Assembly: GCF_000025685.1 (NCBI RefSeq)
Contig: NC_013967.1
Span: 2,100,001 to 2,132,000, forward strand
From: Haloferax volcanii DS2
GTDB lineage: Archaea; Halobacteriota; Halobacteria; Halobacteriales; Haloferacaceae
DNA length: 32,000 nucleotides
Reading direction: 5' to 3'
Below are positions 9,712-31,832 of this stretch, one piece after another. The notes beneath the pieces are model-generated. The model had not been told where the DNA came from. It saw only the letters and a list, made by a program, of their open reading frames with translations, and made no database searches. Every line of letters starts with the position of its first letter. The first letter of the stretch is position 1. The translations under genes were made by a program, and so were the position numbers.

Positions 9712-9863
9712 TGTGTCTTTCTGTGTGTTTGTGACCGAGTTTGTTGTAGTACGCGCACCGTTCTCTGTCCCGTCCAACCGAAAGCAGGCTTAAGAGAGTC
9801 GAGCGACAAAGTCACCGGGTCGCGTGACACAGGCTACGGACTGATGGACTTCGAGTGAGAAAG

Positions 9864-9877
9864 TGGCCTCGGCACTC
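9864..9877. repeat. core direct repeat TGGCCTCGGCACTC, copy A (candidate attL)
   Basis: It matches 12479-12492 exactly and 31736-31748 over 13 bp. It sits at the composition break. The flanking AGAAAG and CGACTCAC are also shared with copy B. Confidence 0.6.
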
Positions 9878-10110
9878 ACGACTCACAATCTATCCATAGT
9901 GAATGTGTTTAGCGGCTCTATAGAGTCCGCTGTGCCCGTAACAACCAGAACTCAGAGGTTTGATTTCGAGTCATATCCTCAGCAAGAACTTTCACCCACT
10001 CATCACAATTAGGTGTTCATGAGCACCAACGACCGGCAGGACCGGGTTCCTGGGTTCGTCTATCTGGACATGGACCGAGTAAAATCCATATCGTCCCGTA
10101 TCGATGAAGG

Positions 10111-11512
10111 TTCAGTACCTCACAAAGCATCCTCGCCTAGCTGTCTCTGAAGCCTGAATTCTGTGGCCGAGCGGTTGCATTGGCGGTCTCGACGACAGAA
10201 TCATGGACGGATCGGCGGAGAGCCGTCGCTGTCGGCGGCGGCTGCCGCCGACGCGACAGCGTCGCCACTCCCACTGTTGGCTAGCCCGGTCGGGAGTTAC
10301 CGGTGGAACCGGTCGTCTGGTGGTCGGTTCGCGGGGACGGCCCGACGCACCGCGAGGGCCGTCCACGCTGCTCGACGGACCATATTGATGAACTCCTTGA
10401 ACGACCACTCCCAGAGGCGACGCCCCCCACGGCGGGGCGTCGCCACGTACTCCCAGTGCAAATACCGCCAGACGTTCTGTAACAGCAGGCTCACCACGAC
10501 GTACAACAGCCGTACGACCGGATTCTGTGTCGAGGTCGTCGCGATACTTTGCTCGGAGAGTCGATAGCTTGCCTCGATACCGAAGCGTTTCGCGTAGTGG
10601 TATCGAGCGTCCCGTGGTGAGTCGATGAACGGCGCGTCAGCGGCGTAGCCGTGACGCGCCACGCCATGTTCGTCGTACCGTCCGTTCTGGTAGGTACAGT
10701 CGATGTAGACGGGAAACTCGACGGTCCAGCTGTGACCGTCGAGTTTCGCTGTCAGACTGTGCTGAATCACGCGACTCCACCCTTCTGAGAGTTCTCGCTT
10801 GATCGTCCGTCCCCAGCGGACGATCGGCATGACGTAGGCGTGGTTGTGCGCCTGAAGCAGCGTCAAACACTTGCTGTCGTAGAATTCGCGGTCAAGATAG
10901 ACGGCCTTGACACCGAGGTCAAGGCCGTCGAGAATACCGAGGAACTCTGCGAGGACACTGCTGGCGGTGTCGCCGTCTTCGAGACGGCGCACCGCCAGCG
11001 TGTAGCGTTTGTTCTTCACGCGTGCGTACAGTGTCGCGTACGCGTGAAACGCGGTGGTTCCACGCTTCGCTTGTGAGTGATACAGGCCGTCTGTATCGTC
11101 TTCGTCGCCGTAGTAGGGCCGCAGGTGGAGGTCTGCGCAGACCTCCACCTGCTGGGGAAGGACGTCGAGAACGTCTTTCTGGAGGAGCGTGTTCCCGATT
11201 TGTTCGAGCGTCTCGAGGTCGAACTTGGTGCGGAGATGGTAGAGAACCGAGTTTTCGTGAGGTGCATCTTCGCTTCTCTTGCAGAGTGTAGAGACCGAGG
11301 TCCCGTCGGCGCAGGCGCCGACGAGGACCTCGTAGATGTCTTCAGCATCGAGTTCAGCGTTTTCAGCGAGTGAGAGAGCAACTTCCTCGTCAAGAGAGTT
11401 GACGAGGAAGTTAAGGAGCTGGTCCTCGTGGATTTCATCGTCTGTTTGCTGGTTGTTGGACACATCTTCAGCAAGCAGACCTTCTAACTAAACGGCTTTG
11501 TGAGGTACTGAA
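10111..11512 (-). mobile_element. ISH3-family insertion sequence (about 1.4 kb)
   Basis: Perfect 18-bp terminal inverted repeats: TTCAGTACCTCACAAAGC (10111-10128) and GCTTTGTGAGGTACTGAA (11495-11512). A single transposase ORF lies inside. GC is higher than the surrounding island. A possible 5-bp target duplication, AGGTT/AAGTT, appears if the repeats are read as 16 bp. Confidence 0.85.
10297..11463 (-). CDS. ISH3-family (IS4-related DDE) transposase
   Basis: 388-aa ORF whose length and sequence character match haloarchaeal ISH3-type transposases as I recall them (…YLDREFYDS…, …AKRFGIEASYR…). It is bounded by the inverted repeats. Confidence 0.8.
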   Translation of the reverse strand: MSNNQQTDDEIHEDQLLNFLVNSLDEEVALSLAENAELDAEDIYEVLVGACADGTSVSTLCKRSEDAPHENSVLYHLRTKFDLETLEQIGNTLLQKDVLDVLPQQVEVCADLHLRPYYGDEDDTDGLYHSQAKRGTTAFHAYATLYARVKNKRYTLAVRRLEDGDTASSVLAEFLGILDGLDLGVKAVYLDREFYDSKCLTLLQAHNHAYVMPIVRWGRTIKRELSEGWSRVIQHSLTAKLDGHSWTVEFPVYIDCTYQNGRYDEHGVARHGYAADAPFIDSPRDARYHYAKRFGIEASYRLSEQSIATTSTQNPVVRLLYVVVSLLLQNVWRYLHWEYVATPRRGGRRLWEWSFKEFINMVRRAAWTALAVRRAVPANRPPDDRFHR

Positions 11513-12478
11513 GTTATCTCGATTCGGATAATTTGGAGACGAGAATCACAGTCACTGGACCTTATCGATTTCAGGAGCTCCGTGATGAGATTGAGGACGC
11601 GGGAATTTCCATACATGACGGGAGCAACCCAGACCAGCTATCTAGGGGTGATGTTGTAGAGGTGTCTGGAAAGCTGAAACCGATGTCTCTGTTCAAATTC
11701 GAGATAGCATTCAAAGCATTTCTCGATATAATGGACAATGAAACTCAACAGTACTTGCAGGAAATCGATTATCAGGACCAACAGGTCCAAGAGGAGATAT
11801 CGGAAGAGGATGTTGAGGAATTGAAGAACATGCTCAATCTGATACAGAGGTTTGCGGGAGACAAGATTCCACTACGAGCTGACGTGGATAGCCACCCATT
11901 TGGCATCCCTCTCGACCGAAACCACATGAGAAGTAACCCGGAGAGAGTGTTCTTCGAGGATAGGGAATATACCGTCTTTGGAAGAGTAGAAAACCTCATT
12001 CAGGATGCAGAGCAGTGGGACCCCGCAGCGGTAACGGATATTATCGACACATACGTTCCACAGGAACAAACGGGAGAGGAGATGCGGACCATACTCAAGC
12101 AGGTTTCGAGGGAGTTCAATATGCAATTGAGCGATGAAGATTTCATAATCAAGTCTCCAGGGAGCATTATCCACCCAATCGCAGTTCACTGGTAGCGGTC
12201 ACTCATACAATTCTAAGGAACACACTCGGACGAGCCATTTTAGACGACTTTCTATTCCGGCGGTTCAAGAACGAGAGAAGGGAAGTTACCGATTCTCACT
12301 GTGTGACTCACATCTCGACTAGTAGAGTCGATACCTCGATAGTAGTGACTGGGGCCTATGTGACCTCTCAGAGTGTACTCTATTCGCCTGTTGATTACGA
12401 CTGTCCTCTCTCAGAGGGTAGCAGACGCGATTCTCTGACATTCGTGCACTTCTCTTCGCGAATGTATGGATAGAAAGC

Positions 12479-12492
12479 TGGCCTCGGCACTC
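12479..12492. repeat. core direct repeat TGGCCTCGGCACTC, copy B (candidate junction att)
   Basis: Exact 14-bp match to copy A. It lies in a 500-bp non-coding gap. Confidence 0.6.
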
Positions 12493-12702
12493 GAACCAGT
12501 AATTATTACCGACTCACGAAACAATTTATAGAAGATGTCTGATTCACGCCTAAACCGATAGACTGCGAGGGGATATCTATCGAGATACTCCCTATGTTAT
12601 GGAATACTCCCTGACGAAAGAGAATCTTCAACGCGAGGGTGAGGGACAAAAATACAAACCTGGTCCGGCTAAGACGAATGATTCTATCGGAACGTCGTCG
12701 GA

Positions 12703-14656: not shown

Positions 14657-15367
14657 ATGGCACGACGTGAGGATATTACCCGACTCTATGAACTCCTTGA
14701 CGAGTTAGAGCAGACCGTCGGCGGGAAACAGAAGCTCAAGGACTGTACCGGCTATATGGACTGGCCCGACAGAGGCGTCTACTTCTTCTTTGCGTCAGAC
14801 GAACACCGCGACGCCGGCGACCAGCTTCGGATTACTCGCATCGGGACTCACGCTGTCTCCGAGAGAAGCAGTACCTCGCTCTGGGACCGACTCAGAACAC
14901 ATCGCGGAGCAAAGCGGGGAACCTACGAAGGCGGCGGGAACCACCGAGGCTCTGTCTTCCGAAAACGAGTCGGCGAAGCGTTCGTTGAGCGTGATTCCCT
15001 GAATGATGAGTATCCCCATTGGGGCGAAGGCTCAAGCGCGAAGCGAGAACGACGACTTGATGAACTCGAGATGGAGCGGCGAGTAAGCGACTATCTTCGG
15101 GACCTGCCGTTCCTCTGGCTCAACGTTGACGATGAACCAAGGGCCGAGAGTCAACGGGCCTACATCGAACGAAACACGATTGCGCTCCTCAGTAACTACC
15201 AGCGAGAGGCCGTTGACGCTCGCTCAGATAATTGGCTGGGAAATCATAGTCGGAGCAAGAAAATCCGCGAATCCGGACTGTGGAATGTGAACCACGTCGA
15301 TGAGGATTACGACCCGGAATTTCTCGACCTCCTCCGCGACCAGATAGAAGAAACGTCGCCAGTCTAA
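14657..15367 (+). CDS. GIY-YIG-like nuclease domain protein (236 aa)
   Basis: GVYFFF…LRITRIGTH (GIY…YIG-like), then LWDRLRTHRG (conserved Arg region), GGNHRGSVFRKRVGEAF, and YIERNTIALL (Glu). It is transcribed divergently from 13851..14573. Confidence 0.6.
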   Translation: MARREDITRLYELLDELEQTVGGKQKLKDCTGYMDWPDRGVYFFFASDEHRDAGDQLRITRIGTHAVSERSSTSLWDRLRTHRGAKRGTYEGGGNHRGSVFRKRVGEAFVERDSLNDEYPHWGEGSSAKRERRLDELEMERRVSDYLRDLPFLWLNVDDEPRAESQRAYIERNTIALLSNYQREAVDARSDNWLGNHSRSKKIRESGLWNVNHVDEDYDPEFLDLLRDQIEETSPV

Positions 15368-15429: not shown

Positions 15430-16818
15430 ATGGCAATCTACGTCGACGACCCTCTCAATTCGAACGACGAAGACTGGGACATCAGCAAGTTCCACAGCGA
15501 TAGCGAATACTTCGTTAAGCGACCACCCTATCAGCGAAAGACCGTCTGGGATACCGGAAAGAAGAAAGAACTAATCGACAGCTTCGTTCGCCAACTCTAC
15601 GTTCCGCCTGTCGTTATCCGGCAAGTCGTCCTCGACGGTAACGACCTCCGTCTCGAAGTCGTCGACGGCCAACAGCGAATTACCGCGATTCAAGAGTTCT
15701 TCGAGGACGAATTCGCACTCCCCGATAGCCCCGAACTCCGTGAACTCAACCCGGAACACGAGATTGCTGGGAAACGATACTCCGAACTTAGCGAGGACGT
15801 CCAGGAGTATATTGACTCTCAGTGTTCGCTCAAAGTCATCAAGCTGCGCGGCATCGACGACCCCGACGACAAGCGCCATCAGGAGTTAGCCACGAAGGTA
15901 TTCTGGCGACTCCAGCAGGGCGAACACCTGACCAACATCGAGAAGAACCACAGTAAGACCTACAGCCCCGTTCGGAACTTCATCGTCCAGACGGCCGACG
16001 ACATCAGCTTCGACCGGGAGAACTACGAAAGCCGTGACGACAACCCCAATCGCCACGAGTTCTTCACGCTTCTCGCTCGGAACAACGACCGACTTCAGCA
16101 ACTCTCACTCCTTGCTCGCTTCATCCTGATTGAGATTGATGAAGGCCCGACGAAGGTCACCGGGAAGGAGGTCACCAAACTATTCGATTGCAAGCGCGAG
16201 GGGTTCACTGTCCACGAGGACTTAGAAGAGTTCAAACAACGCGATGAGATTCAGCGCGTTCAGCGGATGCTCGACCTCCTTACGGAACTGTACCGAGATA
16301 CCGACCTGAAGAACGGGAACGGAGAGATAGAGTTCCTAAACAAGGAGTACTTCATCCTCAGCCTGTATTCGCTCATCCGTGAGTTAGAGTACGGCGATTA
16401 CAACTTCGGGCGGGACAACTACGACGAGGTTCGGGACTTCACCGAGGAGTGGTTCAAGCGGTTCGAAGTTGAGGATACAGACGACAGCGAAATGCTCCAA
16501 TTCAAGGAGGCTCGCCAGCAGAACCGAGGAGCAGTCAACAAGCGACACTACATCCTCGAAAACGCCTTCTGGGAGACAGAGCCCGACATTCAAGAGACGG
16601 ACAGCCAACGGGCATTCTCCCGAGCGCAGCGAATTAAGCTCTTCATCGAGAGTGACCGCATCTGCGAGATGTGCGTAGAGGAAGGGAAAACCGAAGAGGA
16701 GGCAAAAGTGTCTTGGAGTAATTGGGACGCCGACCACATCGAGGAACACTCACAGGGCGGCCAGACTGTTCTCGAAAACGCACGGGTCCTCTGCCCCCAT
16801 CATAATCGGAGCCGATAG
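15430..16818 (+). CDS. DUF262 (ParB-like, DGQQR) plus C-terminal HNH nuclease; GmrSD/BrxU/SspE-like type IV restriction candidate
   Basis: N-terminal YQRKTVWDTGKKKELIDS…VVDGQQRITAIQEFF is the DUF262 signature. C-terminal CEMC…DADHIEEHSQGGQTVLENARVLCPHHN is HNH. Confidence 0.8.
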   Translation: MAIYVDDPLNSNDEDWDISKFHSDSEYFVKRPPYQRKTVWDTGKKKELIDSFVRQLYVPPVVIRQVVLDGNDLRLEVVDGQQRITAIQEFFEDEFALPDSPELRELNPEHEIAGKRYSELSEDVQEYIDSQCSLKVIKLRGIDDPDDKRHQELATKVFWRLQQGEHLTNIEKNHSKTYSPVRNFIVQTADDISFDRENYESRDDNPNRHEFFTLLARNNDRLQQLSLLARFILIEIDEGPTKVTGKEVTKLFDCKREGFTVHEDLEEFKQRDEIQRVQRMLDLLTELYRDTDLKNGNGEIEFLNKEYFILSLYSLIRELEYGDYNFGRDNYDEVRDFTEEWFKRFEVEDTDDSEMLQFKEARQQNRGAVNKRHYILENAFWETEPDIQETDSQRAFSRAQRIKLFIESDRICEMCVEEGKTEEEAKVSWSNWDADHIEEHSQGGQTVLENARVLCPHHNRSR

Positions 16819-19910: not shown

Positions 19911-22316
19911 ATGACTTCCGAATATTACTTCCAGTATTGGGAGACTGTGTCTTCTCAACGTACCAAGGAATATGATGAACTGAAAGATGGAGAGGCGCTT
20001 GGTGGGAAGCGCCCTATGATTCAGAATGACCGTTTTGAGATGTTGAAACGGCTATGCGACGAAGCCGGCATAGATGACTGGGTTGGAGAGATAGACCATA
20101 CCGCTACATATCAATCAAACAAACAGAAGATAATGAACCGGTATGGTCTCTCTGGATTTGAGGTTGACCAGGAGCAGAAGCTCAAAAAATTAGAAGCGGA
20201 AGCAGAAGACCGAGAAGCGGAGGCTCCAGAAGATGCTCCGACTTCGTTTGAGGAGCAGATGCGTCAGCAATCCGGTGGGACAAAGCAGCCAGCAGACACA
20301 ATTGAGGTTGAGTCAATTGATGGGGGTTCTGAGCAGCCAGCAAAGAACAAGCAACAAAATACTCAGTCCAATAAGTCACCGAGTGGACGACAGTCTCAGA
20401 AGTCACAAATATCTGCCTCAGCGTCCCTCTCCCTTTCTCAAGTTCGAAATAAATGTCTTAAAACGATTGAGGAAGCATATGCGGAAACCCAACCAGCTCT
20501 AATTGATGCTCTACCCGGGACTGGGAAAAGCTATGCTGCGGTAGAAGCGGCCTCAACCACAGAGACACCAATTACCATACTCACTTCTCGAGGACGAGAG
20601 GAGAGATACGCTGAAATCGAGTCTTGGTGTCAGACACACGGGCTATCCTCCAAAGTTCTACCTAGCGCTGACAAGGACTGCCCCACTTTTGCTGGAAAGC
20701 ACGGCTCCCAGTTGAAAACACGGTTCAAGAAATATCGTGATTTGGGGGTTACAGTATCAGACCTACATGCTCATTGGAGTCCTCCGTGTCAGAATGAAAG
20801 TAGATGCCCCTACCAGTCTGCGTGGGACTTCCAACCGGAAGACTACGACGTAATTATGGGGTACTACACCCAAGCATACGTCGATAAAGTTACAGAGAAC
20901 AGAGTCGTTGTCATTGATGAGATACCGTCAGACGCTTTTCTTACCCAATTCGAGGACCCACAAACTCCAATCACTAATTTTCTCCAACAAACAAACGGTA
21001 TCCCCTTCCCAAATTATCACAGTCTAATCGCCAATAAAGACAGTCAAAAAGAGGAAACAGCACTCAAGTGGTTCGAAAATAGAGGAATTGACATTGGTGG
21101 TTCGAAGCAAATTCTTGACGCAAATACTAGTGACTACCACATTCACGCACCACTCTTGGTCTTAGGTATTCTCATCTCTGAACCCCTTGGAAACAACTGG
21201 AGTAGAGCCTCCTTGGGCGGCGGTCAAGTATTTGCTCACGACCAAAACGGGAACAAGATGTCTGTTCTCACGCCGCCAACTCTGACAAACGCCAAGAATG
21301 TAATCGCATTAGATGGAACACCTACACTACGGCTCTATGACTTGATGTTCAATGTCGGATTTGAGCAAAAGCAGCTACTTAGTGACCCGGAGCGGGAAGA
21401 ATACATCCAGGATACGCAGAACCTGAAGATTGTCCAGACCGAACTCAAATACATCCGCCCATATACAAGCGGGAGTAGTGTCAATGTTGACCGAGACGAA
21501 GCCCTTCTTCGAGAGGTGATTGCGGTCCACAGCGATGACCCGTCAGTAATCACTTCCTGCAAGGCTTTGAGAAAGCTCAAAGCTACGAACATCCCGATAT
21601 CTCCAAATAGCACCTACTACGGGAATCTCAGAGGCTCGAACGAGTTGGCTAAGAAAGATGTCGGGGTGATTCTTGGTAGTCCGCACTACGGGGACGAATT
21701 TATTGAGCGGTGGTCGGCTCTATTTGGATTCGAAGCGTCTGGCACTAAGACCGGTACCGCAAAGTCGTATGGAGCCTTCGGCGATGAACTTCTCCAGCAT
21801 ATGCGAGAAAATGAGGTACTGCAAGCGGTTTTCCGATTTGCTCGTGATGGGTCGGGAGCGACCGTCTATGTGAATACTGCAGCAATCCCACCCTGGCTTC
21901 CCCGAGAGATAGCATTAGGCGTCTCACGTACTCGGACGTCCACCGAACGAGAGATAATTGATGTACTATCGAATAAGGGTAAGGCCTCTGGAACCGAGAT
22001 AGCCACAAAAGTCGATAAGCATCCGAATACGGTTCGCTCTCACCTCCGTACCCTCCAGAAAGAGGGAATAGTCCGTAAGACCGGCAAAAACAAAGGAACC
22101 CAGTGGCACGATGACGGGTTATCTAATGCTAACAAGTACGGCGCAGTCGACCTCAACAGTATCACCAATAAGACCTATAAGATACCTATTAGGGAAATTG
22201 GTGATAAAATCGAGCTCAAAGACGAACTGGATATGCATCTTGAGCAATATGGCATTGACCAAGCTGAGCGCGACCGATTAATCGGAGATGTGTGGATGAC
22301 TGACCACCGAACTTAG
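19911..22316 (+). CDS. P-loop NTPase/helicase-like protein with a Cys-rich insert and a C-terminal winged HTH; putative replication protein of the element
   Basis: Walker A LPGTGKSY and Walker B VVVIDEIP. Cysteines lie between them (DKDCPTF…SPPCQNESRCPY). Later helicase-like blocks are ALDGTP, GNLRGSNE and QAVFRFARDG. The C-terminal REIIDVLSNKGKASGTEIATKVDKHPNTVRSHLRTLQKEGIVRK is wHTH. A Q/S/K-rich low-complexity linker spans aa 120-180. Confidence 0.65.
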   Translation: MTSEYYFQYWETVSSQRTKEYDELKDGEALGGKRPMIQNDRFEMLKRLCDEAGIDDWVGEIDHTATYQSNKQKIMNRYGLSGFEVDQEQKLKKLEAEAEDREAEAPEDAPTSFEEQMRQQSGGTKQPADTIEVESIDGGSEQPAKNKQQNTQSNKSPSGRQSQKSQISASASLSLSQVRNKCLKTIEEAYAETQPALIDALPGTGKSYAAVEAASTTETPITILTSRGREERYAEIESWCQTHGLSSKVLPSADKDCPTFAGKHGSQLKTRFKKYRDLGVTVSDLHAHWSPPCQNESRCPYQSAWDFQPEDYDVIMGYYTQAYVDKVTENRVVVIDEIPSDAFLTQFEDPQTPITNFLQQTNGIPFPNYHSLIANKDSQKEETALKWFENRGIDIGGSKQILDANTSDYHIHAPLLVLGILISEPLGNNWSRASLGGGQVFAHDQNGNKMSVLTPPTLTNAKNVIALDGTPTLRLYDLMFNVGFEQKQLLSDPEREEYIQDTQNLKIVQTELKYIRPYTSGSSVNVDRDEALLREVIAVHSDDPSVITSCKALRKLKATNIPISPNSTYYGNLRGSNELAKKDVGVILGSPHYGDEFIERWSALFGFEASGTKTGTAKSYGAFGDELLQHMRENEVLQAVFRFARDGSGATVYVNTAAIPPWLPREIALGVSRTRTSTEREIIDVLSNKGKASGTEIATKVDKHPNTVRSHLRTLQKEGIVRKTGKNKGTQWHDDGLSNANKYGAVDLNSITNKTYKIPIREIGDKIELKDELDMHLEQYGIDQAERDRLIGDVWMTDHRT

Positions 22317-22479: not shown

Positions 22480-22746
22480 TCAGTCTTCAGACTCTCCCTC
22501 CTCGTAGCCAGCTTCGTACTCATCTCGTACCGTCCTCGAAGCTCGTTTCGAGAGCTTAGCGAGATTTTTGTTGAATCGACGGATAGAGAGGTAGATGTAC
22601 AGCAGGAGGAGATACGGCCAGATGAACAACCCAACGACAGAATAGATGGCGAGTTTGAGGAAGCGGTACTCTATCGGGCCGATATGGACGCTACCTATCT
22701 GGATGCCGCTCGATTCGTCTTGCTCGTCACTGTCTGAATCAGTCAT
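22480..22746 (-). CDS. small membrane protein (88 aa)
   Basis: Start taken at MTDSDSDEQ (ATG at 22746). Hydrophobic core LKLAIYSVVGLFIWPYLLLLYIYLSI and acidic termini. It is transcribed divergently from the 22933 operon. Confidence 0.5.
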   Translation of the reverse strand: MTDSDSDEQDESSGIQIGSVHIGPIEYRFLKLAIYSVVGLFIWPYLLLLYIYLSIRRFNKNLAKLSKRASRTVRDEYEAGYEEGESED

Positions 22747-22932
22747 TGTAATCTCCTGGCCAAAGCCGTCGCTGCTGGACAAGCGACGACAGTAGGACTT
22801 ATTCAGAGAGACGGCTGGAATCGATATCAAATTACTGACTTTAACTCTGAGATTGACTTCTGGACGTCCCTCTGGAATGAGAGTCACAAGCAAAGAAGAG
22901 AATATTTGTGCTTTGAATGTAGTCAGGAAAAC

Positions 22933-23286
22933 ATGACCGACGACCCGGAGGATATTCCAGACCCTGTTAAACCAACCACCCTCCAGAAGCTCCTACGAGC
23001 ATATACGCCCGAAGATAAGCAGGTCGGGGGTGAATCAGCGGACTATCTTAAACTTCAGGTGGACAATACTATTCGGGTTGTTTGGGAGGAGGCGATGAAG
23101 AAGTCTGAGGAACGTGACGCGAAACGAGTTGAAGAACAAGACGTCCGTGCTGCATTCAACGAGATATTCTATCCATACACGCTCTTAGAAGAGGCAGCGA
23201 CGAAGATGGGAGAATACCAACTAGAGCTTCGACGTACAGCGAACCGGTCACCCATCCTTGACTTGGAGGATGACGAGGATGAGTAG
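22933..23286 (+). CDS. histone-fold-like small DNA-binding protein (117 aa)
   Basis: Start at MTDDPEDIP (ATG at 22933). A TATA-like AATATTT at 22901-22907 lies about 28 nt upstream. PTTLQKLLRAY…ESADYLKLQVDNTIRVVWEEAMKKSEERDAKRVEEQDVRAAF aligns by eye to the archaeal histone pattern (…A…L…i…A…A…gRKTv…Dv…A). Confidence 0.55.
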   Translation: MTDDPEDIPDPVKPTTLQKLLRAYTPEDKQVGGESADYLKLQVDNTIRVVWEEAMKKSEERDAKRVEEQDVRAAFNEIFYPYTLLEEAATKMGEYQLELRRTANRSPILDLEDDEDE

Positions 23287-24760
23287 CGACCCGAATCTGT
23301 TCTTTTTCAGAGACGGCTATACGAGCGACGAGATGCGGTCTCGGATAAACGTTGACCATTTCCGAACCGACGATAATTCGCTTGTTGAGTCCATCCTTGA
23401 AAAGGCGAGCTTAGAGCGAGATGTTATACTTGAAAACCGGAAGTCAGATTTCCTATCCAAAATCAAATCCAACGTAGAAACGGAGGAGTACCAGTCATTT
23501 CTCTCCCAGATGTTCGAAGAGCACGGAGAGAAGGGCGACCGTGTCAATTTGCAGTTTTACCGAACTGGAGAACTTTCATTTGAGAGCTTAGTTGGGAAAC
23601 TTGCTGACGAAGTTGAACAGGAGACTATGACGGATGGTGGAGATTCCCGCTATTCATCTCTGATTACGGATTACGAGACACATGACGGTCAAGTCGTCGA
23701 TATTCAGTTTCGTCTCAGCGATGAACCAAGCGACTTGGAGTTAACTGAGGACGGATATGTTGAAGACGTCGATGGAGATAGAGTCGATATCAGCGAACTC
23801 GGCCTAGAGGACTATGAAAAGGTCGTCAAGACTAACAAATATTCTGTAGAGGTCCGAGCATACACGGACGCCGGATTGATAGCGGTCTCTAACTCGAAGG
23901 CCAGCACCACGCTCCAGAAGGCACTCCGTCAATCTCTCAGAAAATGGGGTGATGCAGATGCCGGAAATGAAGGATTCCTACTAAAGGAAACGGAGCTGCT
24001 TCTAATGCAGAATCTTATGGATGGTGATAACTCCGGGCTGGACTTCGGAGGATTCCTCGATAAGAACCTCAAGACGGCAAAATACCGTGGCGACCGAAAT
24101 GAGACTCTATCTCGGTCTCCCGTGTTGAGTCCTGCCCGTGAGCAGGGAACCATCACTCAGGCACGGTTCTATCATATGTACGATGATGGAACGGGGCCGC
24201 GACCAGTTCAAGTCCGGGTGTACCACGATGGTCACATCTCCTCAAGTAAACCGACGAAGCCCGACTTCGTCGATACTGTAACTGAGCACTTCCTGACGGT
24301 ATTCAAATATCGGGACTACATCCAACCGCTTGATGAACTAATCAGCGAGTTCATCGATGACCGATTCCGTGATGAACTTTATTCGGGAGAAGACTCCTAT
24401 CGAAGTAATAAGATGCAGGCATTTGGGAGTCTCGTTGACCAGTACATCAATAGCAACTCGTTTGATGAATCAGAGCGTCCGGTATTCGAAGCTACGTTTG
24501 CGAACATAGGAATCGAACTCTCTCAGCTTGACCTCACCAGCGATGAGTATCCCGAGGTCGAAGAAGCGTCTGACCGGCCAGAGAAAGAAACAGACCTCAA
24601 GGAGTTCTTCGAAAACTACTCGGACTATGTATTGAAGTCCACGCAGCCCGACTTTGATAACCTCTGGATGCACCTCGAATATGTCATCAATCGGCAATCT
24701 CACGACTCACCAATAGACATCATCGAGACCGCAATAGAGGAATATGCTCTCAGAGAGTGA
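23279..24760 (+). CDS. hypothetical protein (493 aa), no recognisable domain
   Basis: Start at MSSDPNLFFF (ATG at 23279), overlapping the upstream stop by 8 nt. Acidic, clean ORF; the antisense ORFs are short. Confidence 0.7.
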   Translation: MSSDPNLFFFRDGYTSDEMRSRINVDHFRTDDNSLVESILEKASLERDVILENRKSDFLSKIKSNVETEEYQSFLSQMFEEHGEKGDRVNLQFYRTGELSFESLVGKLADEVEQETMTDGGDSRYSSLITDYETHDGQVVDIQFRLSDEPSDLELTEDGYVEDVDGDRVDISELGLEDYEKVVKTNKYSVEVRAYTDAGLIAVSNSKASTTLQKALRQSLRKWGDADAGNEGFLLKETELLLMQNLMDGDNSGLDFGGFLDKNLKTAKYRGDRNETLSRSPVLSPAREQGTITQARFYHMYDDGTGPRPVQVRVYHDGHISSSKPTKPDFVDTVTEHFLTVFKYRDYIQPLDELISEFIDDRFRDELYSGEDSYRSNKMQAFGSLVDQYINSNSFDESERPVFEATFANIGIELSQLDLTSDEYPEVEEASDRPEKETDLKEFFENYSDYVLKSTQPDFDNLWMHLEYVINRQSHDSPIDIIETAIEEYALRE

Positions 24761-25901
24761 GGCGGTTTTCCTCAATCGATGTCTTCGAGAGATTCCCGCA
24801 ACCGGCCGAATAGAGGATATTGAGTTTACCGAAGAACAGGTACTAGAGCTAATTTCGGATGCTAGTCTGGCCGAATCTGATTTAAACCGTGGATGGGCAC
24901 GGTTCTTCGACTCACGCTCAAAGGATGTTGTAGAGGACGGGATTAGCACTGGTGAGACTGTTGAGATGTATCGGCTTAGCCCAGAAATCATCGCTAACGA
25001 CTGGGCCGACGAAGTAGACGATAATTCCTGGTTCTCTGAAACACGCTTAGAGCAAGTCGATGATGAAAGCTGGTGTTTCATCGCGCAATCCGATGGGCGG
25101 GGAGAACTAACGTTCCGTCTATTCTTCAATGGAAGGCGAGTTGAGGAGTATTCTCCAGACGCCCTCAAGAATAGTTTTGCAGTTTGGTTCGTCGAGCCTC
25201 GACATACGCCGGATGAAAGAGCTACGTTTCGGTGGGCAGAGTTCTTACAGGACGATTTCTGGGAGGACCTTCAGCGTAACCTATTGCGTATTCAAGAGCC
25301 CAGAACCGTCGATATCTGTCGCCTCAACTCTGTCGCGGCAAGCGATAATATGGAGGGTATTGAAGACGCTATCAAGTACAAGTTCAGGGACTTAGAATTA
25401 GAAGTCGAGGAGGACCCTGAAGAGGATATTACTGAAATTGAAGAATATATCGATGGGCCAATACTGTTCGGGGCGAAGGAGGACCAAGATTCCTCATATC
25501 TCATAGTATGTGAATGTGACCGTAGCCCCAATCAGCTTCATCTCCACTATGTCCGCGACGGTAAGCCCGCATACCTGAGTGATTCTAATCACGCAGAGGA
25601 TGTCCGAGAATTCACCCGGAGCAAGGTCAAGCGATACAACGAGCTATCCGCGAAAAAGAAGGACGTGCTACCAATTCTAAAGTGGAGTGCGGCTTTGCTC
25701 GGGGCAATCGGTGTTTCGCAGGTCATTCCACTATTCACGTTCTTTGGAGTTCAACCGAACTCTCAGATGGTGACTAACAGTATGATTGGCGTTCTTGTAG
25801 TGAGTCTGCTAATCGGGATTGGCGTTTTTGTGTATATGATGCTCCCCGTAGTTGCCTTCCGGAGATTCAGTTGGACACGAGATGGCGGGTTGTTGAACTA
25901 G
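24744..25901 (+). CDS. hypothetical protein (385 aa) with two C-terminal transmembrane helices
   Basis: It overlaps the upstream gene by 17 nt. The N-terminal 320 aa or so are soluble and acidic, with no signal peptide. C-terminal TM helices: ILKWSAALLGAIGVSQVIPLFTFFGV and MIGVLVVSLLIGIGVFVYMMLPVVAF. Confidence 0.7.
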   Translation: MLSESEAVFLNRCLREIPATGRIEDIEFTEEQVLELISDASLAESDLNRGWARFFDSRSKDVVEDGISTGETVEMYRLSPEIIANDWADEVDDNSWFSETRLEQVDDESWCFIAQSDGRGELTFRLFFNGRRVEEYSPDALKNSFAVWFVEPRHTPDERATFRWAEFLQDDFWEDLQRNLLRIQEPRTVDICRLNSVAASDNMEGIEDAIKYKFRDLELEVEEDPEEDITEIEEYIDGPILFGAKEDQDSSYLIVCECDRSPNQLHLHYVRDGKPAYLSDSNHAEDVREFTRSKVKRYNELSAKKKDVLPILKWSAALLGAIGVSQVIPLFTFFGVQPNSQMVTNSMIGVLVVSLLIGIGVFVYMMLPVVAFRRFSWTRDGGLLN

Positions 25902-26071: not shown

Positions 26072-26614
26072 TTAGAGAAATTCAGAGACCGTCTCTGTCA
26101 AGCCCGCAAAAATCTCCTCGGCTGATTCGATACTCCGACAGCCCGTGATAACAACCTTACCTGTAGCGAAGAGCAGTACTACACCTTCTGCGCCCTCGGG
26201 GCGATAAATTAGACCGGGGAACTGTTCCGGTTCGTACTCGGTCTTCTCGAGACCCAGTCCGATGGCGAGCGCATTCAGATTGAGGTTCTGGTCTAGTTCT
26301 CCAGTACAGACGTAATTCTGGACGGCGAACCACTCGTCCTCGGGGTTCTCAATAACGTCCATTTCGGCGAACAAATTCAGAAATCGCTCTCGGAGCGAGT
26401 AGGATTCGTCCTCGGAGTCTGCGCCGGTGATGATGAATTTACCCGTGCGATAGACCGTTATCAGCGGCGCATCCTCCTCGAATCGAAGGTACATCCCTGG
26501 GTACTTGTCCGGGTCGTAGCGAGCGACCGGCTCACCGATGTCGTCAGCGAGGCGTTCTAAATCGAGTTCGACATTCAGAGCACCTGATGCGACGACATTT
26601 ACAATCTCTACCAT
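26072..26614 (-). CDS. tbp: TATA-box binding protein (TBP) paralog
   Basis: Start at MVEIVNVVASG (ATG at 26614). Two TBP repeats: IVNVVASGALNVELDLERLA… and VQNYVCTGELDQNLNLNALA…, each followed by the …GKFIITGA / GKVVITGC motif. Confidence 0.9.
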   Translation of the reverse strand: MVEIVNVVASGALNVELDLERLADDIGEPVARYDPDKYPGMYLRFEEDAPLITVYRTGKFIITGADSEDESYSLRERFLNLFAEMDVIENPEDEWFAVQNYVCTGELDQNLNLNALAIGLGLEKTEYEPEQFPGLIYRPEGAEGVVLLFATGKVVITGCRSIESAEEIFAGLTETVSEFL

Positions 26615-26757
26615 CCCGCCCTCCGACTCACAGTTAAATCTCGTTTCAATTCTGCTCAGCCCTCGTCTAAACACTTGCTGGTTTCCGCCCTCTGTGAGGT
26701 ATTGTTGAAAATGACTGTCGGAAGAGCACTTATACCCCGAGTGAAATATAGTGAGTA

Positions 26758-28980
26758 ATGGCTGACAAAGGAACCGACCCCGAAGACGAAGCCCGAGAGG
26801 TCATCGATACCCAGCTAAAAGAGGCAGGCTGGAAAGACCTCGAAGAAGAGGGAGGCGATACGGGTTTCGAACGGGAGTATTCCACTTCTTCTGGTCCCGT
26901 TGATTACGCTCTTCTGGTCTCAGGAAAGCCCATCGCGGTCGTAGAAGCGAAAGAAGCCCAGAAAGACGCCTATGCCGCTCTAACCCAATCCAAACGATAC
27001 GCACAGGATATCGGTACGGGTGAGAACTACGCTGGCCGGTACGGCGTCCCCTTCGTGTTCACCGCGAACTCAGACGAAGTGTGGTTTCAGGACCTTCGAG
27101 AGGAGGCCCCGCGTGAACGGAAACTCCGTAGTTTCCACCGACCTGATGGACTCGAACAGTTCCTCAATACCGACTACAAGGCTGCGAAGGAGTGGCTAGA
27201 GGATACCCCTATTCGAGAGTCCGACTCGAACCTCTGGGATAACCAGTTTGAGGCAATCCAGAGTATCGAAGAGTCCCTTCAGGAAAACAAGCGGCGGATG
27301 CTCGTTCAGATGGCGACTGGAACCGGGAAGACCCGGATGGCCTGCGCTCAAACCTACCGCCTCCTGAAATCCGGCTACGTCAATAGCGTTCTCTTCCTCG
27401 TTGACCGCAACAGCCTCGGGAATCAGGCTGAGAGCGCATTCAAAAACTACGACGTCGGCCCGGCGATGAAGCTAAGCGACATCTACATTATCGAGCAGGT
27501 CGAGGACGGCGTCTATCCCGAGAACGCGGATATCGTCATCGCCACCCTTCAGGGGATGTACAGTCTGCTCGAAAATCACGACGAACTCGACATCCCGCAG
27601 GACGCGTTCGACTTCATCATCTCCGACGAGTCCCACCGCTCTATCTACGGGGACTGGCGCGTCGTTCTGAATCACTTCGATGCCCTCCAACTCGGTCTGA
27701 CTGCGACCCCGGCGACTCACACGCTCAGCTACTTCAACGAGAATTGGGTCTACCAATACGGCTACTGGCAGGCGGTCGATGACGGTCACGTCGTCCCCTA
27801 CGAGACGTACCGGATTCAGACGGGCATCACGATGGACGGCCTCTACTACGAAGATGAGGAGTACGAACCCGGCGACCTCGAAAACAAAATCACCGTTCCC
27901 TCTACGAACCGCCTCATAGCAGAAGAGTTCCGGAAGCAGTCGGGCGAGGACGAAAAGACGCTCGTGTTCGCTAAGAACGACCGTCACGCAACCGAGTTAG
28001 AGAAGATATTCAGGGAGGTCTACTCGGACAAAGACGACCGCTACGTCAAGAAAATCACCTACACGACCGACGACCCCGACGGCTGGATTAAACGATTCAG
28101 GAATCAGAAGTACCCGAAAATCGCGGTGACGGTTGATATGGTCAGTACGGGTGTTGACGTCAAACCTATCGAGAATATCATCTTCATCCGGCCGACTCGT
28201 TCCGCCGTCCTCTACAACCAGATGATTGGCCGGGGGACTCGAACCTGCGACGAGATTGGCAAAGAGAAGTTCACCATCTACGACTGCATCGGCATCGTCG
28301 ACTACTTCAGCGAGACGCCGCCGTTCAACACGTACCGCCCGGATGGAACCGTCGACGAAGAGAAGTCCGGACAGAAGGAGCGAGAGGACGACGAGGACGA
28401 CGAAATCATCGTCGCCGACGACGTTCAGGACCACCTCGAATTCTCGGGGTATATGTTCGAGACGAAGGACGGCCAAGAGCTACGGCCGGACGACTACGTC
28501 ACTCACTTCGAGCGATACGTGAGACAGAACCAGTCCGAGATTGAAGCAATAAAGATAATAATGGAGTCCCCGGAAGCCCTCAAGCGTAAGCACCTCCGGG
28601 AACTCAATCGGAAACTTCAGGACGAGCCGGAGAAGTTCTCCGAAGAGAAGCTGCAAAAGGCCTACGGGCAGGAGATGACCGACATCATCGGCTTCATCAA
28701 ACACGCCCTCGGTGAAGACGAGTTCCCCACGACGGAAGACCGGGTCGAACGGGCGTTTAGTGCGTGGATGCAGGACAAAGATTTCACCGAGCAAGAACGC
28801 GAGTGGCTGAACCTCCTCAAACGCCACTTCGTGCAGGAGAAAGTCATCAAGAAGGAGGATTTCAACTACGTGCCGTTCTCCCGGCATGGCGGTTGGAATT
28901 CCGCTGCGGAGGCATTCGGAGGAGAAGAGGAGCTGAAAGACGTGCTGCAAGAGCTTAACGAAGACGTGATATTAGCATGA
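26758..28980 (+). CDS. hsdR: type I restriction enzyme R subunit (HsdR)
   Basis: N-terminal PD-(D/E)xK-like VDYAL…VVEAKE. SF2 helicase motifs QMATGTGKT, SDESHR, LGLTATP and QMIGRGTR. The C-terminal domain is EcoEI-R-type. A 4-nt ATGA overlap joins it to hsdM. Confidence 0.9.
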   Translation: MADKGTDPEDEAREVIDTQLKEAGWKDLEEEGGDTGFEREYSTSSGPVDYALLVSGKPIAVVEAKEAQKDAYAALTQSKRYAQDIGTGENYAGRYGVPFVFTANSDEVWFQDLREEAPRERKLRSFHRPDGLEQFLNTDYKAAKEWLEDTPIRESDSNLWDNQFEAIQSIEESLQENKRRMLVQMATGTGKTRMACAQTYRLLKSGYVNSVLFLVDRNSLGNQAESAFKNYDVGPAMKLSDIYIIEQVEDGVYPENADIVIATLQGMYSLLENHDELDIPQDAFDFIISDESHRSIYGDWRVVLNHFDALQLGLTATPATHTLSYFNENWVYQYGYWQAVDDGHVVPYETYRIQTGITMDGLYYEDEEYEPGDLENKITVPSTNRLIAEEFRKQSGEDEKTLVFAKNDRHATELEKIFREVYSDKDDRYVKKITYTTDDPDGWIKRFRNQKYPKIAVTVDMVSTGVDVKPIENIIFIRPTRSAVLYNQMIGRGTRTCDEIGKEKFTIYDCIGIVDYFSETPPFNTYRPDGTVDEEKSGQKEREDDEDDEIIVADDVQDHLEFSGYMFETKDGQELRPDDYVTHFERYVRQNQSEIEAIKIIMESPEALKRKHLRELNRKLQDEPEKFSEEKLQKAYGQEMTDIIGFIKHALGEDEFPTTEDRVERAFSAWMQDKDFTEQEREWLNLLKRHFVQEKVIKKEDFNYVPFSRHGGWNSAAEAFGGEEELKDVLQELNEDVILA

Positions 28981-30371
28981 GTCGGAACAACGGAAAACTC
29001 GACGTCGAACAGAAGATTTGGGATATCTGTGGTATTCTCCGTGAGGACGGGATGCACATCGGGACTTATGTCGAACAGGTCACGGTGCTACTATTCCTAA
29101 AGATGATGGACGAGCGGGAGCAATTCGGTAGCGAGTCCATTGAGATTCCGGAAGATTGCCAATGGAGTGTGCTAAAAGAAAAGGATGGTGAGGAGCTCCT
29201 TGAGCATTATAACCGCGTTGTCCTTCCGACGCTCGGAGACCAAGACGGAATTGTTGGAGACATTTTCGCGCGAGTTAATAGTCAGTTCCGCACACCAGTC
29301 AACCTCCGTGAAGCTATTCGTGAAATTGATGAAGTAGAGTGGTCGGCGATTGAGGTTGATGTTAAGGGGACTGCATATGAAGCGCTTCTTCAGCGATATG
29401 CTGAAGAAGCAAAAGGGGCGGGCCAATATTTCACACCTCGACCAGCAATTAAGGCAATTGTCAAGGCAGTAGACCCCGACCATGACGATGATATACATGA
29501 CCCAGCCGCTGGGACTGGAGGGTTCCTAATCCACGCTTTCGAACATATTCTTGAAAAGACAAATGAAGGGTTGGACCTGAGTCGGGATGAACGGAGAGAG
29601 CTAATGACAGAAAATCTCTCTGGAATGGAATTAGTGCCTGAAACCCGCCGACTAGGGCTAATGAACTTAGCACTTCACGATTTACAGCCTCAGAATTTCG
29701 AGGTGGGAGATTCATTATCGCTGGGTCCACATACGGACGAGTCGTATGATGTGATATTAACTAACCCGCCATACGGTGGAAATCAAAAGAAAAAGCGAGC
29801 TCGGGATGATTTTATGGTCGATACCAGAAGTCCCGAACTCAACTTTGTTCAACACAACATGAGCCTCCTCAAACAAGGGGGTGAATGTGGTATGGTCGTT
29901 CCAGATGGGACCTTGTTCCAGTCCGGCGCTGCCCAAAGAATCCGAGAGAACCTATTTGAGGATTTTAACGTCCATACTGTTCTCGTACTACCGATTGGTG
30001 CATTCCAACCCTACACCAACGTTGCAACTAACGTTATATTCTTTGAAAAGGGCGATTCAACCGAGAAAGTGTGGTTCTATGACCTCCGAACAGAGATGGA
30101 AAAAATCAAGAAAAGTAACCCTCTTACGGAAGAGCACTTTGAGGATTTCCTTGAGAATTTTGACTCTCGTGAAGAAAGCGAACATTATTTCTCTGTTTCA
30201 ATAGAAGAAATTGAGGAGAACGAGCACACGCTCAGTTACAAGCAGTATAAGGAATTTGATGATGGTGATGAAGTTGCGCCTCCAGAGGAGCTTCTCACTG
30301 AACTGCAATCTCTACAAGATACTGTTCGAGAGAATACAGAAGCGATTATGGATGAGCTGGAGGACGAATAA
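28977..30371 (+). CDS. hsdM: type I R-M N6-adenine DNA methyltransferase subunit (HsdM)
   Basis: N-terminal HsdM-type helical domain. AdoMet motif DPAAGTGGFL and catalytic NPPYGG. FTPR precedes motif I. Confidence 0.9.
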   Translation: MSRNNGKLDVEQKIWDICGILREDGMHIGTYVEQVTVLLFLKMMDEREQFGSESIEIPEDCQWSVLKEKDGEELLEHYNRVVLPTLGDQDGIVGDIFARVNSQFRTPVNLREAIREIDEVEWSAIEVDVKGTAYEALLQRYAEEAKGAGQYFTPRPAIKAIVKAVDPDHDDDIHDPAAGTGGFLIHAFEHILEKTNEGLDLSRDERRELMTENLSGMELVPETRRLGLMNLALHDLQPQNFEVGDSLSLGPHTDESYDVILTNPPYGGNQKKKRARDDFMVDTRSPELNFVQHNMSLLKQGGECGMVVPDGTLFQSGAAQRIRENLFEDFNVHTVLVLPIGAFQPYTNVATNVIFFEKGDSTEKVWFYDLRTEMEKIKKSNPLTEEHFEDFLENFDSREESEHYFSVSIEEIEENEHTLSYKQYKEFDDGDEVAPPEELLTELQSLQDTVRENTEAIMDELEDE

Positions 30372-31603
30372 TGGATAGAGAGGATTTGCCTAAAGGATGG
30401 AGACAATACGAATTAGGTGAGATATGCGAAATCATCATGGGTAACTCACCCCCTGGGGAGAGTTATAACGATGAGGGAGAGGGGGTACGTTTCTTGCAGG
30501 GCCAAAATGAATTCGGGGAGAATACCCCTGATAGCGATAGATTCACTACCGAACCTTCGAGGATGAGTAAGAATGGGGATATATTGGTAGCTATCAGAGC
30601 TACACCCTTAGGGATAGTAAACCAAGCAGATGATGAATATTGTGTAGGGCGTGGTGTAGCTGCATTAAGACCGAAGAAGAAGAAGCTTGATGGAAGATAT
30701 CTCTACCACTACATGAAATACTGCAAAGAGAGCGAGTACTGGAGAAAGGTGAGTACTGGCAGTACCTATCCATCAATAACTAAGACAAACCTGCAGAATT
30801 TGTCTGTCCCGCTTCCACCCTTGTCCGAACAGCAGAAAATTGCCGACAAGCTGAACTCCGTAATTAGGGGAGTGGACGAGACACGCGAAGTGAGTTCTGA
30901 CGCTAAAGTAATTGAAGAGAATCTACTTCGGTCCTGCATTTCGGGGTTGATGCCAGAAAAGGAGGGTTCAACGTGTGAAACAGTCAAACTCGATACTGTC
31001 TGCGAAGTAATCCTTGGTAATTCACCCCCAGGAGAGAGTTACAACGAGGAGGGTGAGGGAATGCGTTTCTTGCAGGGGCAAAAAGAATTTGGAGAAAAGA
31101 CCCCTGTCAGCGATAGATACACTACTGACCCTTCGAAAGTAGGTAAGGAAGGGGACATTCTGATAGCTATCAGAGCAACGCCCTTGGGAATCATAAACCG
31201 TTCAGACGATACGTATTGTCTTGGGAGAGGTGTAGCAGGGCTAAGACCTGAAAAGAATCTCGATGGTGGATACCTCTATTACTATATGAAGATACAACAC
31301 GGATATTGGGAGAAAATCAGCAAAGGGAGCACATACCCCTCCATAACTAAGACAAATCTTCAAAATCTACCCATTCCACTTCCAAAGATTTCTAAACAGC
31401 AGGAAATAGCTGAACGTCTTGAATACATTGAAGCCAGAATAGACGATATTCATGAAGCATCGGAGCGAATGTCCGACATAATCGACGTACTCCCTGAGTC
31501 GGTTCTTTCAAAAGCATTTCAGGGAGAACTCATAGACGACGAATCCATAGAAGAGCGGGTCGTAGCGGTGCAGAGTGGGTTGGAGGAGTTTGAGCCCAAT
31601 TAA
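30371..31603 (+). CDS. hsdS: type I R-M specificity subunit (HsdS) with two near-identical TRDs
   Basis: TAATG overlap with hsdM. Two-TRD architecture with conserved spacers (LSEQQKIADKL / ISKQQEIAERL). TRD1 (aa 13-161) and TRD2 (aa 205-350) are about 70% identical by eye. Confidence 0.9.
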   Translation: MDREDLPKGWRQYELGEICEIIMGNSPPGESYNDEGEGVRFLQGQNEFGENTPDSDRFTTEPSRMSKNGDILVAIRATPLGIVNQADDEYCVGRGVAALRPKKKKLDGRYLYHYMKYCKESEYWRKVSTGSTYPSITKTNLQNLSVPLPPLSEQQKIADKLNSVIRGVDETREVSSDAKVIEENLLRSCISGLMPEKEGSTCETVKLDTVCEVILGNSPPGESYNEEGEGMRFLQGQKEFGEKTPVSDRYTTDPSKVGKEGDILIAIRATPLGIINRSDDTYCLGRGVAGLRPEKNLDGGYLYYYMKIQHGYWEKISKGSTYPSITKTNLQNLPIPLPKISKQQEIAERLEYIEARIDDIHEASERMSDIIDVLPESVLSKAFQGELIDDESIEERVVAVQSGLEEFEPN

Positions 31604-31735: not shown

Positions 31736-31748
31736 GGCCTCGGCACTC
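31736..31748. repeat. core direct repeat GGCCTCGGCACTC, copy C (candidate junction att)
   Basis: 13-bp exact match to the cores at 9865-9877 and 12480-12492. It lies 130 bp after the hsdS stop and 85 nt before the next RHH gene. Confidence 0.55.
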
Positions 31749-31832
31749 ATCGAAAGGCGAACTGGAGTTAGTTATAAAAATAATTACAGTTAATCTGGCT
31801 AGCGTGATGAATGTGTTGGGAGGTGTCGAAAA

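Follow-up and report, generated by a model that had tools for sequence, protein, structure and literature searches.

Operons composed of a histone gene, an RdgC-like gene and a gene for a transmembrane (TM) protein, in this order, were described from Halobacteria and Bacillus by Schwab et al. 2024 (Nat Commun 15:7950; PMC11390915). According to these authors, the C-terminal helix of the 'RdgC histone' forms a tetrameric coiled coil, the RdgC-like protein has extra N- and C-terminal domains, and the TM protein combines a TM domain with a winged helix and two domains of unknown nature (PMC11390915). The RdgC fold also occurs in RexA of phage lambda, which binds DNA non-specifically and acts with RexB in exclusion, and in Iml3/Chl4 (CENP-L/N) (Adams et al. 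2024; PMC11077077). The present analysis concerns the genes HVO_2265, HVO_2266 and HVO_2267 of Haloferax volcanii DS2 (the trio), which lie in a stretch of 32,000 nucleotides (contig NC_013967.1, positions 2,100,001 to 2,132,000 of the forward strand), hereafter called the window; positions are counted from its first letter. There is very little doubt that these genes are the published RdgC histone operon of H. volcanii. A preliminary description of the window had presented them as a candidate undescribed system, which cannot be upheld, as the operon type, and very probably the exact locus, has been published (PMC11390915). So far the operon has been recorded solely in a survey of histones, as an entry based on structural bioinformatics; a literature search yielded no further paper on it and none linking histone-fold proteins to phage defence. 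What is added here, by inference, is its mobile and defence-associated context, the homology of the three genes across domains, the exclusion of the divergent gene HVO_2264 and a parallel to the Rex system.

The example given for H. volcanii by Schwab et al. is D4GVY1 (PMC11390915). D4GVX1 was found to be HVO_2255, a gene for a GIY-YIG/PDC-M57B protein lying upstream of HVO_2265 at a distance of ten genes. As the last character of a UniProt accession is a digit, D4GVY1 comes ten steps later and is therefore by accession arithmetic almost certainly HVO_2265. No other copy that could be this exemplar was found in any PLSDB plasmid. The window genes showed the features of the published operon, i.e. 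a histone-fold first gene, an RdgC-like second gene with flanking helices and a TM third gene. The operon and its upstream region are arranged as follows.

22747..22932, no strand: intergenic region of 186 bp upstream of the operon, presumed promoter by position only
22933..23286, + strand: HVO_2265, RdgC-type histone, 117 amino acids (profile against PDB, PF00808, exact-sequence match to 309800.HVO_2265)
23279..24760, + strand: HVO_2266, RdgC-like protein, 493 amino acids (AlphaFold2 model and Foldseek)
24744..25901, + strand: HVO_2267, membrane-anchored protein, 385 amino acids (AlphaFold2 model, hydropathy, exact-sequence match)

The coordinates were taken from the open reading frame (ORF) listing, and the tags HVO_2263, HVO_2264, HVO_2265 and HVO_2267 were assigned by exact-sequence look-up of the window proteins, which also placed the window in the main chromosome of H. 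volcanii DS2. Both junctions were read in the sequence: genes 1 and 2 overlap by 8 nt (ATGAGTAG) and genes 2 and 3 by 17 nt (ATGCTCTCAGAGAGTGA).

The HVO_2265 protein comprises an acidic N-terminal tail, a histone fold (approximately residues 16-84), an extra C-terminal helix (approximately 85-108) and an acidic tail. Taken alone, it scored just below the family cut-offs of the histone models in the searches of sequence families (Pfam, NCBIfam, PHROGs, PADLOC). A profile of its nine-member family (A5) searched against PDB gave HmvA as the best match (8bdk_A, 4.9e-10), followed by dozens of histones of the H2A/H2B and HMfA/B types and by HPhA; PF00808 was matched by all nine members (best 2e-6). 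A conserved segment of about 25 residues after alpha3 could be aligned with the extension of HmvA and with the histones of Bacillota operons.

In the AlphaFold2 monomer model of HVO_2266 (pLDDT 80.8, pTM 0.80), a beta-rich core resembling RdgC (about 87-326) is flanked by a helical insert on the N-terminal side (16-82) and by a domain of helices on the C-terminal side (328-489). The best matches of this model in PDB, as determined with Foldseek, were RdgC of E. coli (2OWL, 4.4e-6, prob 1.0) and of P. aeruginosa (2OWY, 1.1e-4). Against BFVD, 14 matches below 1e-3 were obtained, the top 13 being phage proteins at prob 1.00 and the 14th a weak Pithovirus match; those of the 13 phage proteins that bear a name are called RdgC, recombination-associated protein or exonuclease. 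The relation to RdgC is at fold level only, PF04381 (RdgC) giving no match to HVO_2266 at E values up to 0.1, and no family of Pfam, PHROG, NCBIfam or PADLOC matched the protein. When the RdgC-like profile was searched against PDB sequences, BglG was the sole result and RdgC itself was not found; BglG was rejected as a chance match. Weaker Foldseek matches were observed to the toxin endoribonuclease RnlA (E about 4e-3) and to CENP-N/Chl4 (E 7e-3 to 0.1), the latter appearing because Iml3/Chl4 (CENP-L/N) have the RdgC fold (PMC11077077). Residues R22, K55, G83, G86, D141, E191, R193 and Y195 are invariant in the family from archaea to Bacillota, and F10, R11 and Y14 of an N-terminal FFFR..Y motif are nearly invariant (at least 90%). 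In Natronomonas (locus L003) the gene is split into an N-terminal half of about 225 amino acids (8992-9675) and a C-terminal half of about 265 amino acids (9672-10463), which overlap by 4 nt. Such splitting has been noted for some genomes, e.g. Haloplanus vescus, by Schwab et al. (PMC11390915).

By hydropathy analysis, HVO_2267 lacks a hydrophobic segment at the N-terminus and has two such stretches at the C-terminus (315-336 and 341-375). Its AlphaFold2 model (pLDDT 76.6, pTM 0.47) showed an N-terminal helix/beta-hairpin domain (about 1-80), alpha/beta domains at about 80-185 and 188-280 and a C-terminal part formed by a long helix, a TM hairpin and a conserved P..F.W tail; the first three domains are cytoplasmic in this model. 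The families of Pfam, NCBIfam, PHROGs and PADLOC yielded no match to the protein. Foldseek found nothing significant in PDB, only weak matches to the winged helices of Rio2 and IclR; on this basis, together with its topology in the model, the N-terminal domain may be described as winged-helix-like. Residues W87, W164, F172, G273, P368 and W377 are invariant across archaea and Bacillota. P368, F375 and W377, which flank the last TM helix, are kept from archaea to Bacillota, a constraint that exceeds the needs of a passive anchor. The haloarchaeal proteins carry an invariant C256xC258(x7)H266xH268 motif on a predicted beta-hairpin, and in the Halobaculum-type clade (L005/L008-L010) an additional CExH...CGC insertion was observed in the N-terminal domain (alignment columns about 62-95). 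Both motifs are probably zinc sites, and both are missing from the Bacillota homologs.

These results agree with the preliminary description in that the first gene codes for a histone-fold protein and the third for a protein tethered by two C-terminal TM helices without a signal peptide. Its statement that the 493-amino-acid protein has no recognisable motif stands as far as sequence families are concerned, but the predicted structure is RdgC-like.

A search with HVO_2266 in an index of 5.8 billion proteins returned 11 relatives, all of them haloarchaeal. When each protein of the trio was compared with PLSDB by tblastn, the same five haloarchaeal megaplasmids were found; these were all the matches to complete replicons, and in all five the genes directly follow one another, the order being kept and the overlaps short. 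Further loci were obtained from genome and metagenome look-ups, and a scan of a genome collection, which relied on short conserved peptides, gave five loci. The histone, RdgC-like and membrane genes were found together by tblastn at every one of the loci L001-L018, the order was identical in 22 of the 22 loci fetched (16 of which are distinct), and short overlaps were kept at every other locus examined. The earlier view of the trio as a coupled and co-conserved unit was thereby confirmed. An RdgC-like profile detected only 76 proteins among 1.84 billion representatives. Roughly 55 of these 76 are halves, and the split gene is therefore a common natural form.

Distant full-length RdgC-like homologs occurred in Paenibacillus, Neobacillus, Halobacillus, Alicyclobacillus and Priestia, and four Bacillota loci showed the same three-gene order. 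No plasmid copies were detected in PLSDB by tblastn with two Bacillota RdgC-like proteins. Alignment by hhalign of the haloarchaeal with the Bacillota third-gene proteins gave 96.6% (E 5.6e-10, 260 columns), and that of the HVO_2265 family with the Bacillota operon histones gave 98.3% (E 2e-14, 99 columns, the C-terminal helix included). The other two genes are thus homologous across the domains as well, and homology between Halobacteria and Bacillota extends to the whole trio. On a 510-kb contig (L015) the trio stood alone amid housekeeping genes and is therefore autonomous. It is a self-contained three-gene cassette, carried as cargo by integrated plasmids or integrative and conjugative elements (ICEs), by megaplasmids and by one prophage.

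In H. volcanii the trio is part of Halfvol4 (HVO_2251A-2293A, 53.7 kb, 50% GC), long called a defective provirus (PMC12091111). Di Cianni et al. 2025 (PMC12091111) describe it as an integrated plasmid or ICE with a T4SS (type IV secretion system), two orc genes, the restriction-modification (R-M) genes rmeRMS and Avs2. By mass spectrometry, spectral counts of 11, 22 and 29 were reported for HVO_2265, HVO_2266 and HVO_2267 in CsCl fraction 2 of culture supernatant; this fraction was dominated by membrane-associated debris, and the counts were zero in a strain deleted for Halfvol1-4 (PMC12091111, Table 5). The proteins are therefore made and travel with membrane material. Transcript levels of the operon are low according to Schwab et al. 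(PMC11390915).

The old annotation of Halfvol4 and the occurrence of all three proteins in CsCl fraction 2 would also fit structural or replication genes of a virus, but there is next to no likelihood of this. No tblastn match to the trio was obtained in a phage collection of 50,697 records, no PHROG family matched significantly, and the sole viral matches at the structural level were phage RdgC proteins. Moreover, the authors found neither capsid or viral homologs in Halfvol4 nor a circular form, attributed the material to membrane debris, and detected R-M subunits and Avs2 in the same fraction (PMC12091111). On account of the empty phage search, the lack of capsid and viral homologs and the nature of the fraction, the interpretation as structural genes of a provirus was rejected.

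The neighbourhoods of the trio were compared at the 16 distinct loci. At nine of them, genes clearly assignable to R-M, BREX, Abi, Pycsar or type IV restriction were located within 10 kb, and three further loci contained toxin-antitoxin or HNH genes. A resolvase or integrase was present within two genes of the trio at six of the 16 loci, and at one, in Paenibacillus, the trio directly followed the lysis cassette of a prophage, where morons typically sit. The neighbours in the window are a type I R-M system, a GmrSD/HNH enzyme and PDC-M57B, all within a 19.2-kb integrase module bounded by att-like repeats. Elsewhere, the neighbours were Pycsar with HEPN and PIN, BREX PglX with a helicase, HicAB with PIN, an MmeI-like R-M system, AbiJ with BREX, an Mrr-like nuclease, a helicase-REase fusion, a DUF1156 methylase with DUF499 and, in Priestia, McrBC with GmrSD.

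Since genes for defence or recombinases adjoin the trio at most loci and RexA has the RdgC fold, we tentatively favour a module that would serve mobile elements in exclusion or defence by a Rex-like logic, and prefer it to a role in plasmid maintenance. The three proteins would assemble on the cytoplasmic side of the membrane into a complex that binds DNA, in which the histone tetramer might bridge or capture duplex DNA, the RdgC-like dimer might close around it and HVO_2267 would couple the DNA-bound complex to the membrane. Like RexA, the RdgC-fold binder could signal the presence of DNA that is abnormal or entering the cell to a partner in the membrane, which would take the role of RexB, and the TM hairpin of HVO_2267 may then perturb the membrane or sequester the DNA there.

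Several observations weigh against an exclusion or defence function. Three of the loci had no recognised defence gene nearby, and in two plasmid lineages the trio was situated close to orc1/cdc6 and parA, as part of the backbone. Few loci were sampled, and since defence genes abound on haloarchaeal plasmids, the background of adjacency is high. RexA was absent from the top 50 PDB matches of HVO_2266. No HMM of PADLOC-DB v2.0 matched the haloarchaeal or the Bacillota trios; none of ten diverse third-gene proteins contained a Pfam family, and the searches revealed no effector domain, whether enzymatic or of a known pore-forming kind. The CxC...HxH motif, considered as a catalytic or zinc site of an effector, was rejected as a conserved active site, being missing in Bacillota. 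RexB is a 16-kDa protein with four TM segments, whereas HVO_2267 has 385 amino acids, a large cytoplasmic part and two TM segments. During infection with HFPV-1, HVO_2266 was about two- to fourfold down, not up, and this virus chronically infects H. volcanii strains with Halfvol4 (PMC9436352). The resemblance to defence or exclusion modules proposed in the preliminary description received circumstantial support, from the neighbourhoods of the 16 loci and the RdgC fold of RexA, but neither a PADLOC match nor an effector domain.

The location close to replication genes would be explained by a function in maintenance or inheritance, a serious alternative but on balance an unlikely one. The histone and the RdgC-like ring would package or mark the DNA of the element and the membrane protein would tether it, the effect being passive segregation, copy control or protection, i.e. 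partition-like without an NTPase motor. In Halorussus and Halobaculum-type plasmids the distance between the trio and the genes orc1/cdc6 and parA was 0.2 to 4 kb, the complete-replicon matches were all megaplasmids and the window copy lies in an integrated plasmid or ICE. It would also be in keeping with such a role that the RdgC-fold proteins Iml3/Chl4 (CENP-L/N) bind centromeric chromatin (PMC11077077), that CENP-N/Chl4 appeared in the Foldseek list and that HmvA, the closest solved histone, is extended at its C-terminus in the manner of the bridging coiled-coil histones described by Schwab et al. However, the trio also occurred alone amid chromosomal housekeeping genes, beside resolvases in Bacillota chromosomes and at a prophage end, and a plasmid tether would have no obvious use at chromosomal and prophage sites. 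Neither an NTPase nor recognisable centromere repeats were present, and with 76 proteins among 1.84 billion representatives the family is too rare for a general backbone function. The quadruple provirus deletion was viable; Halfvol4 can thus be deleted without loss of viability, which is no measure of its stability (PMC12091111). If the tether were true, it would be a new mode of inheritance for plasmids and ICEs.

The frequent association with recombinases bears on a further explanation, in which the ring protein, in the manner of E. coli RdgC and with help from the histone, would coat DNA and restrain RecA/RadA, and thereby control the integration, excision or homologous recombination of the element, or the processing of DNA entering at the membrane by conjugation-like transfer or cell fusion. 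RdgC, the best structural match, inhibits RecA functions (PMC11077077), serine or tyrosine recombinases were the commonest immediate neighbours, three of the five plasmids were typed MPF_T, Halfvol4 encodes a T4SS, and ArdC was found nearby in the Natronomonas locus. Such a modulator is nevertheless distinctly improbable: HVO_2266 lacks a sequence match to PF04381, canonical RdgC can do without a histone and without a partner in the membrane, and the recombinases beside the trio vary both in family and in orientation, as would be the case for genes that mobilise cargo and not for functional partners.

Within the window, the GC content drops from about 67% to about 48-55% near 10 kb. In the part of low GC content lie an ISH3 transposase, a DUF6414 fragment, PDC-M57B, the GmrSD+HNH type IV enzyme, a tyrosine integrase and HVO_2263, followed by HVO_2264-2267, a TBP paralog on the opposite strand and a complete type I R-M system, so that the type I and type IV restriction attributed to the element beforehand was indeed found. 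A pattern search for an att-like 14-nt repeat (GGCCTCGGCACTCA) gave three copies in the window, against 0.01 expected. The features surrounding the operon are given below.

9865-9878: att-like repeat, perfect copy, which fits the published left end of Halfvol4 (window start 2,100,001)
12480..12493, + strand: att-like repeat, 13/14 copy, left edge of a 19.2-kb sub-module carrying the operon
14657-15367, + strand: HVO_2255, PADLOC candidate PDC-M57B (E 1.6e-77), GIY-YIG protein in UniProt
15430-16818, + strand: HVO_2256, type IV GmrSD+HNH enzyme
19911-22316, + strand: HVO_2263, 801 amino acids, with a Walker-A-like ALPGTGKS, weak DinG-like matches and a C-terminal winged helix
22480-22746, - strand: HVO_2264, 88 amino acids, one hydrophobic stretch at 29-56 (ORF listing, exact-sequence match)
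26758-31603: type I R-M system (family searches), the R subunit being RmeR (exact-sequence match)
31736..31749, + strand: att-like repeat, perfect copy, right edge of the sub-module, just after rmeS

HVO_2264 is divergent from HVO_2265 and separated from it by 186 bp. The annotation of this gene, its one hydrophobic helix and its position across the shared intergenic region could suggest a system of four genes, as had been proposed at the outset; this is extremely unlikely. No homolog of HVO_2264, nor of HVO_2263, was detected by tblastn at the other trio loci searched (L001-L018), by which HVO_2264 is refuted as a conserved component. Copies of HVO_2264 with at least 90% identity were found in Halobacterium and Halomicrococcus genomes together with homologs of HVO_2255/2256, and no trio homolog surfaced from these genomes. 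HVO_2264 therefore belongs to the neighbouring segment and not to the operon: the divergent membrane protein of the preliminary description exists, but it is not part of the unit. HVO_2263, which is among the most abundant Halfvol4 proteins by mass spectrometry with 117 counts (PMC12091111), was likewise rejected as a component, being missing at the same loci.

Internal copies of the Halfvol4 repeat are mentioned by Di Cianni et al. (PMC12091111). Short inverted repeats (TATTACCGAC / GTCGGTAATA) abut the att-like copies at 12480 and 31736, and for this reason the segment 12494-31735 looks like a discrete, integrase-bearing module of 19.2 kb. Its recognisable cargo is mostly defence (PDC-M57B, GmrSD, rmeRMS), plus the trio and the TBP gene. 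The segment 9879-12479 bears an inverted pair of its own (tctatccata / tatggataga). To judge from these repeats, Halfvol4 looks like the product of tandem or nested integrations. The DUF6414 ORF (11533-12195, + strand) covers only positions 74-282 of the 283 of the profile, is truncated at the N-terminus and adjoins the ISH3 transposase (10297-11463, - strand), which suggests disruption by an insertion sequence. HVO_2255 is directly upstream of HVO_2256, and copies of both with at least 90% identity were observed in Halobacterium, Salarchaeum, Halorussus and Halomicrococcus; identity at this level indicates a putative recent transfer of the pair between genera. The TBP paralog (26072-26674, - strand) is convergent to the trio and lies just downstream of it. 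A TBP paralog of 44% identity was likewise observed convergent and downstream of the trio in Halobaculum-type plasmids (L005/L011-L013, about 11480-12028, - strand), an R-M system coming after it in both cases, and a TFB gene occupied a similar place in Haloterrigena pHTS138 (L001, 13706-14629, - strand). The TBP placement recurred between versions of the trio that are only about 30% identical.

Compared with the operon of Schwab et al., nothing structural differs in HVO_2265-2267. These authors treat the operon as a histone variant and do not address its function, mobile carriage, defence-island context or the Rex parallel. HVO_2265 shares a histone fold with C-terminal extension with HmvA (PDB 8BDK), HMfC and the bridging coiled-coil histones of Methanococcales, and the alignment of HmvA with its profile continues beyond alpha3. 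DNA bridging was shown for HMfC by Schwab et al., who give an identity of only 15-20% between the RdgC histone and coiled-coil histones (PMC11390915). The coiled-coil archaeal histones are nucleoid proteins encoded by single genes, whereas HVO_2265 is the first gene of a weakly expressed three-gene operon on mobile elements. RdgC of E. coli and P. aeruginosa (2OWL/2OWY), a ring-forming, non-specific DNA binder, was the best structural match to HVO_2266 over about 330 aligned columns, at 12-13% identity. HVO_2266 has about 190 residues more, including additional domains of helices, and shares its operon, on mobile elements, with genes for a histone and for a membrane protein, whereas RdgC is a chromosomal housekeeping gene.

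The partition systems ParABS, SegAB and AspA-ParB-ParA combine an NTPase motor with a centromere binder. In contrast, Pfam-type searches revealed no ATPase or GTPase domain in the trio, and the parA genes near some trio loci are separate genes and not parts of it. In CENP-N/CENP-L with the CENP-A nucleosome, a protein of RdgC-related fold works with a histone-fold particle on DNA. It is conceivable, albeit very improbable, that the histone and the RdgC-like protein together correspond, in prokaryotes, to the CENP-A nucleosome with CENP-N/L (Chl4/Iml3); the histone particle would mark the DNA of the element, the RdgC-fold protein would read the mark and the third protein would attach both to the membrane, so as to ensure inheritance of the element. 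The likeness is at fold level only, with weak scores (E 7e-3 to 0.1), and the cellular setting is wholly different; if it were true, a motor-less, membrane-tethered 'centromere' would be common to archaeal and bacterial mobile elements.

For the favoured interpretation as an exclusion or defence module, the comparison is with lambda RexA/RexB and the Rex-like systems of actinophages, in which an RdgC-fold DNA-binding dimer and a membrane protein are encoded by a mobile element and expressed in its carried state. The Rex systems have no histone, whereas the trio does. If this interpretation is true, the operon would represent the first immune function of a prokaryotic histone, and Rex-like logic would extend from lambda to archaea and Firmicutes.

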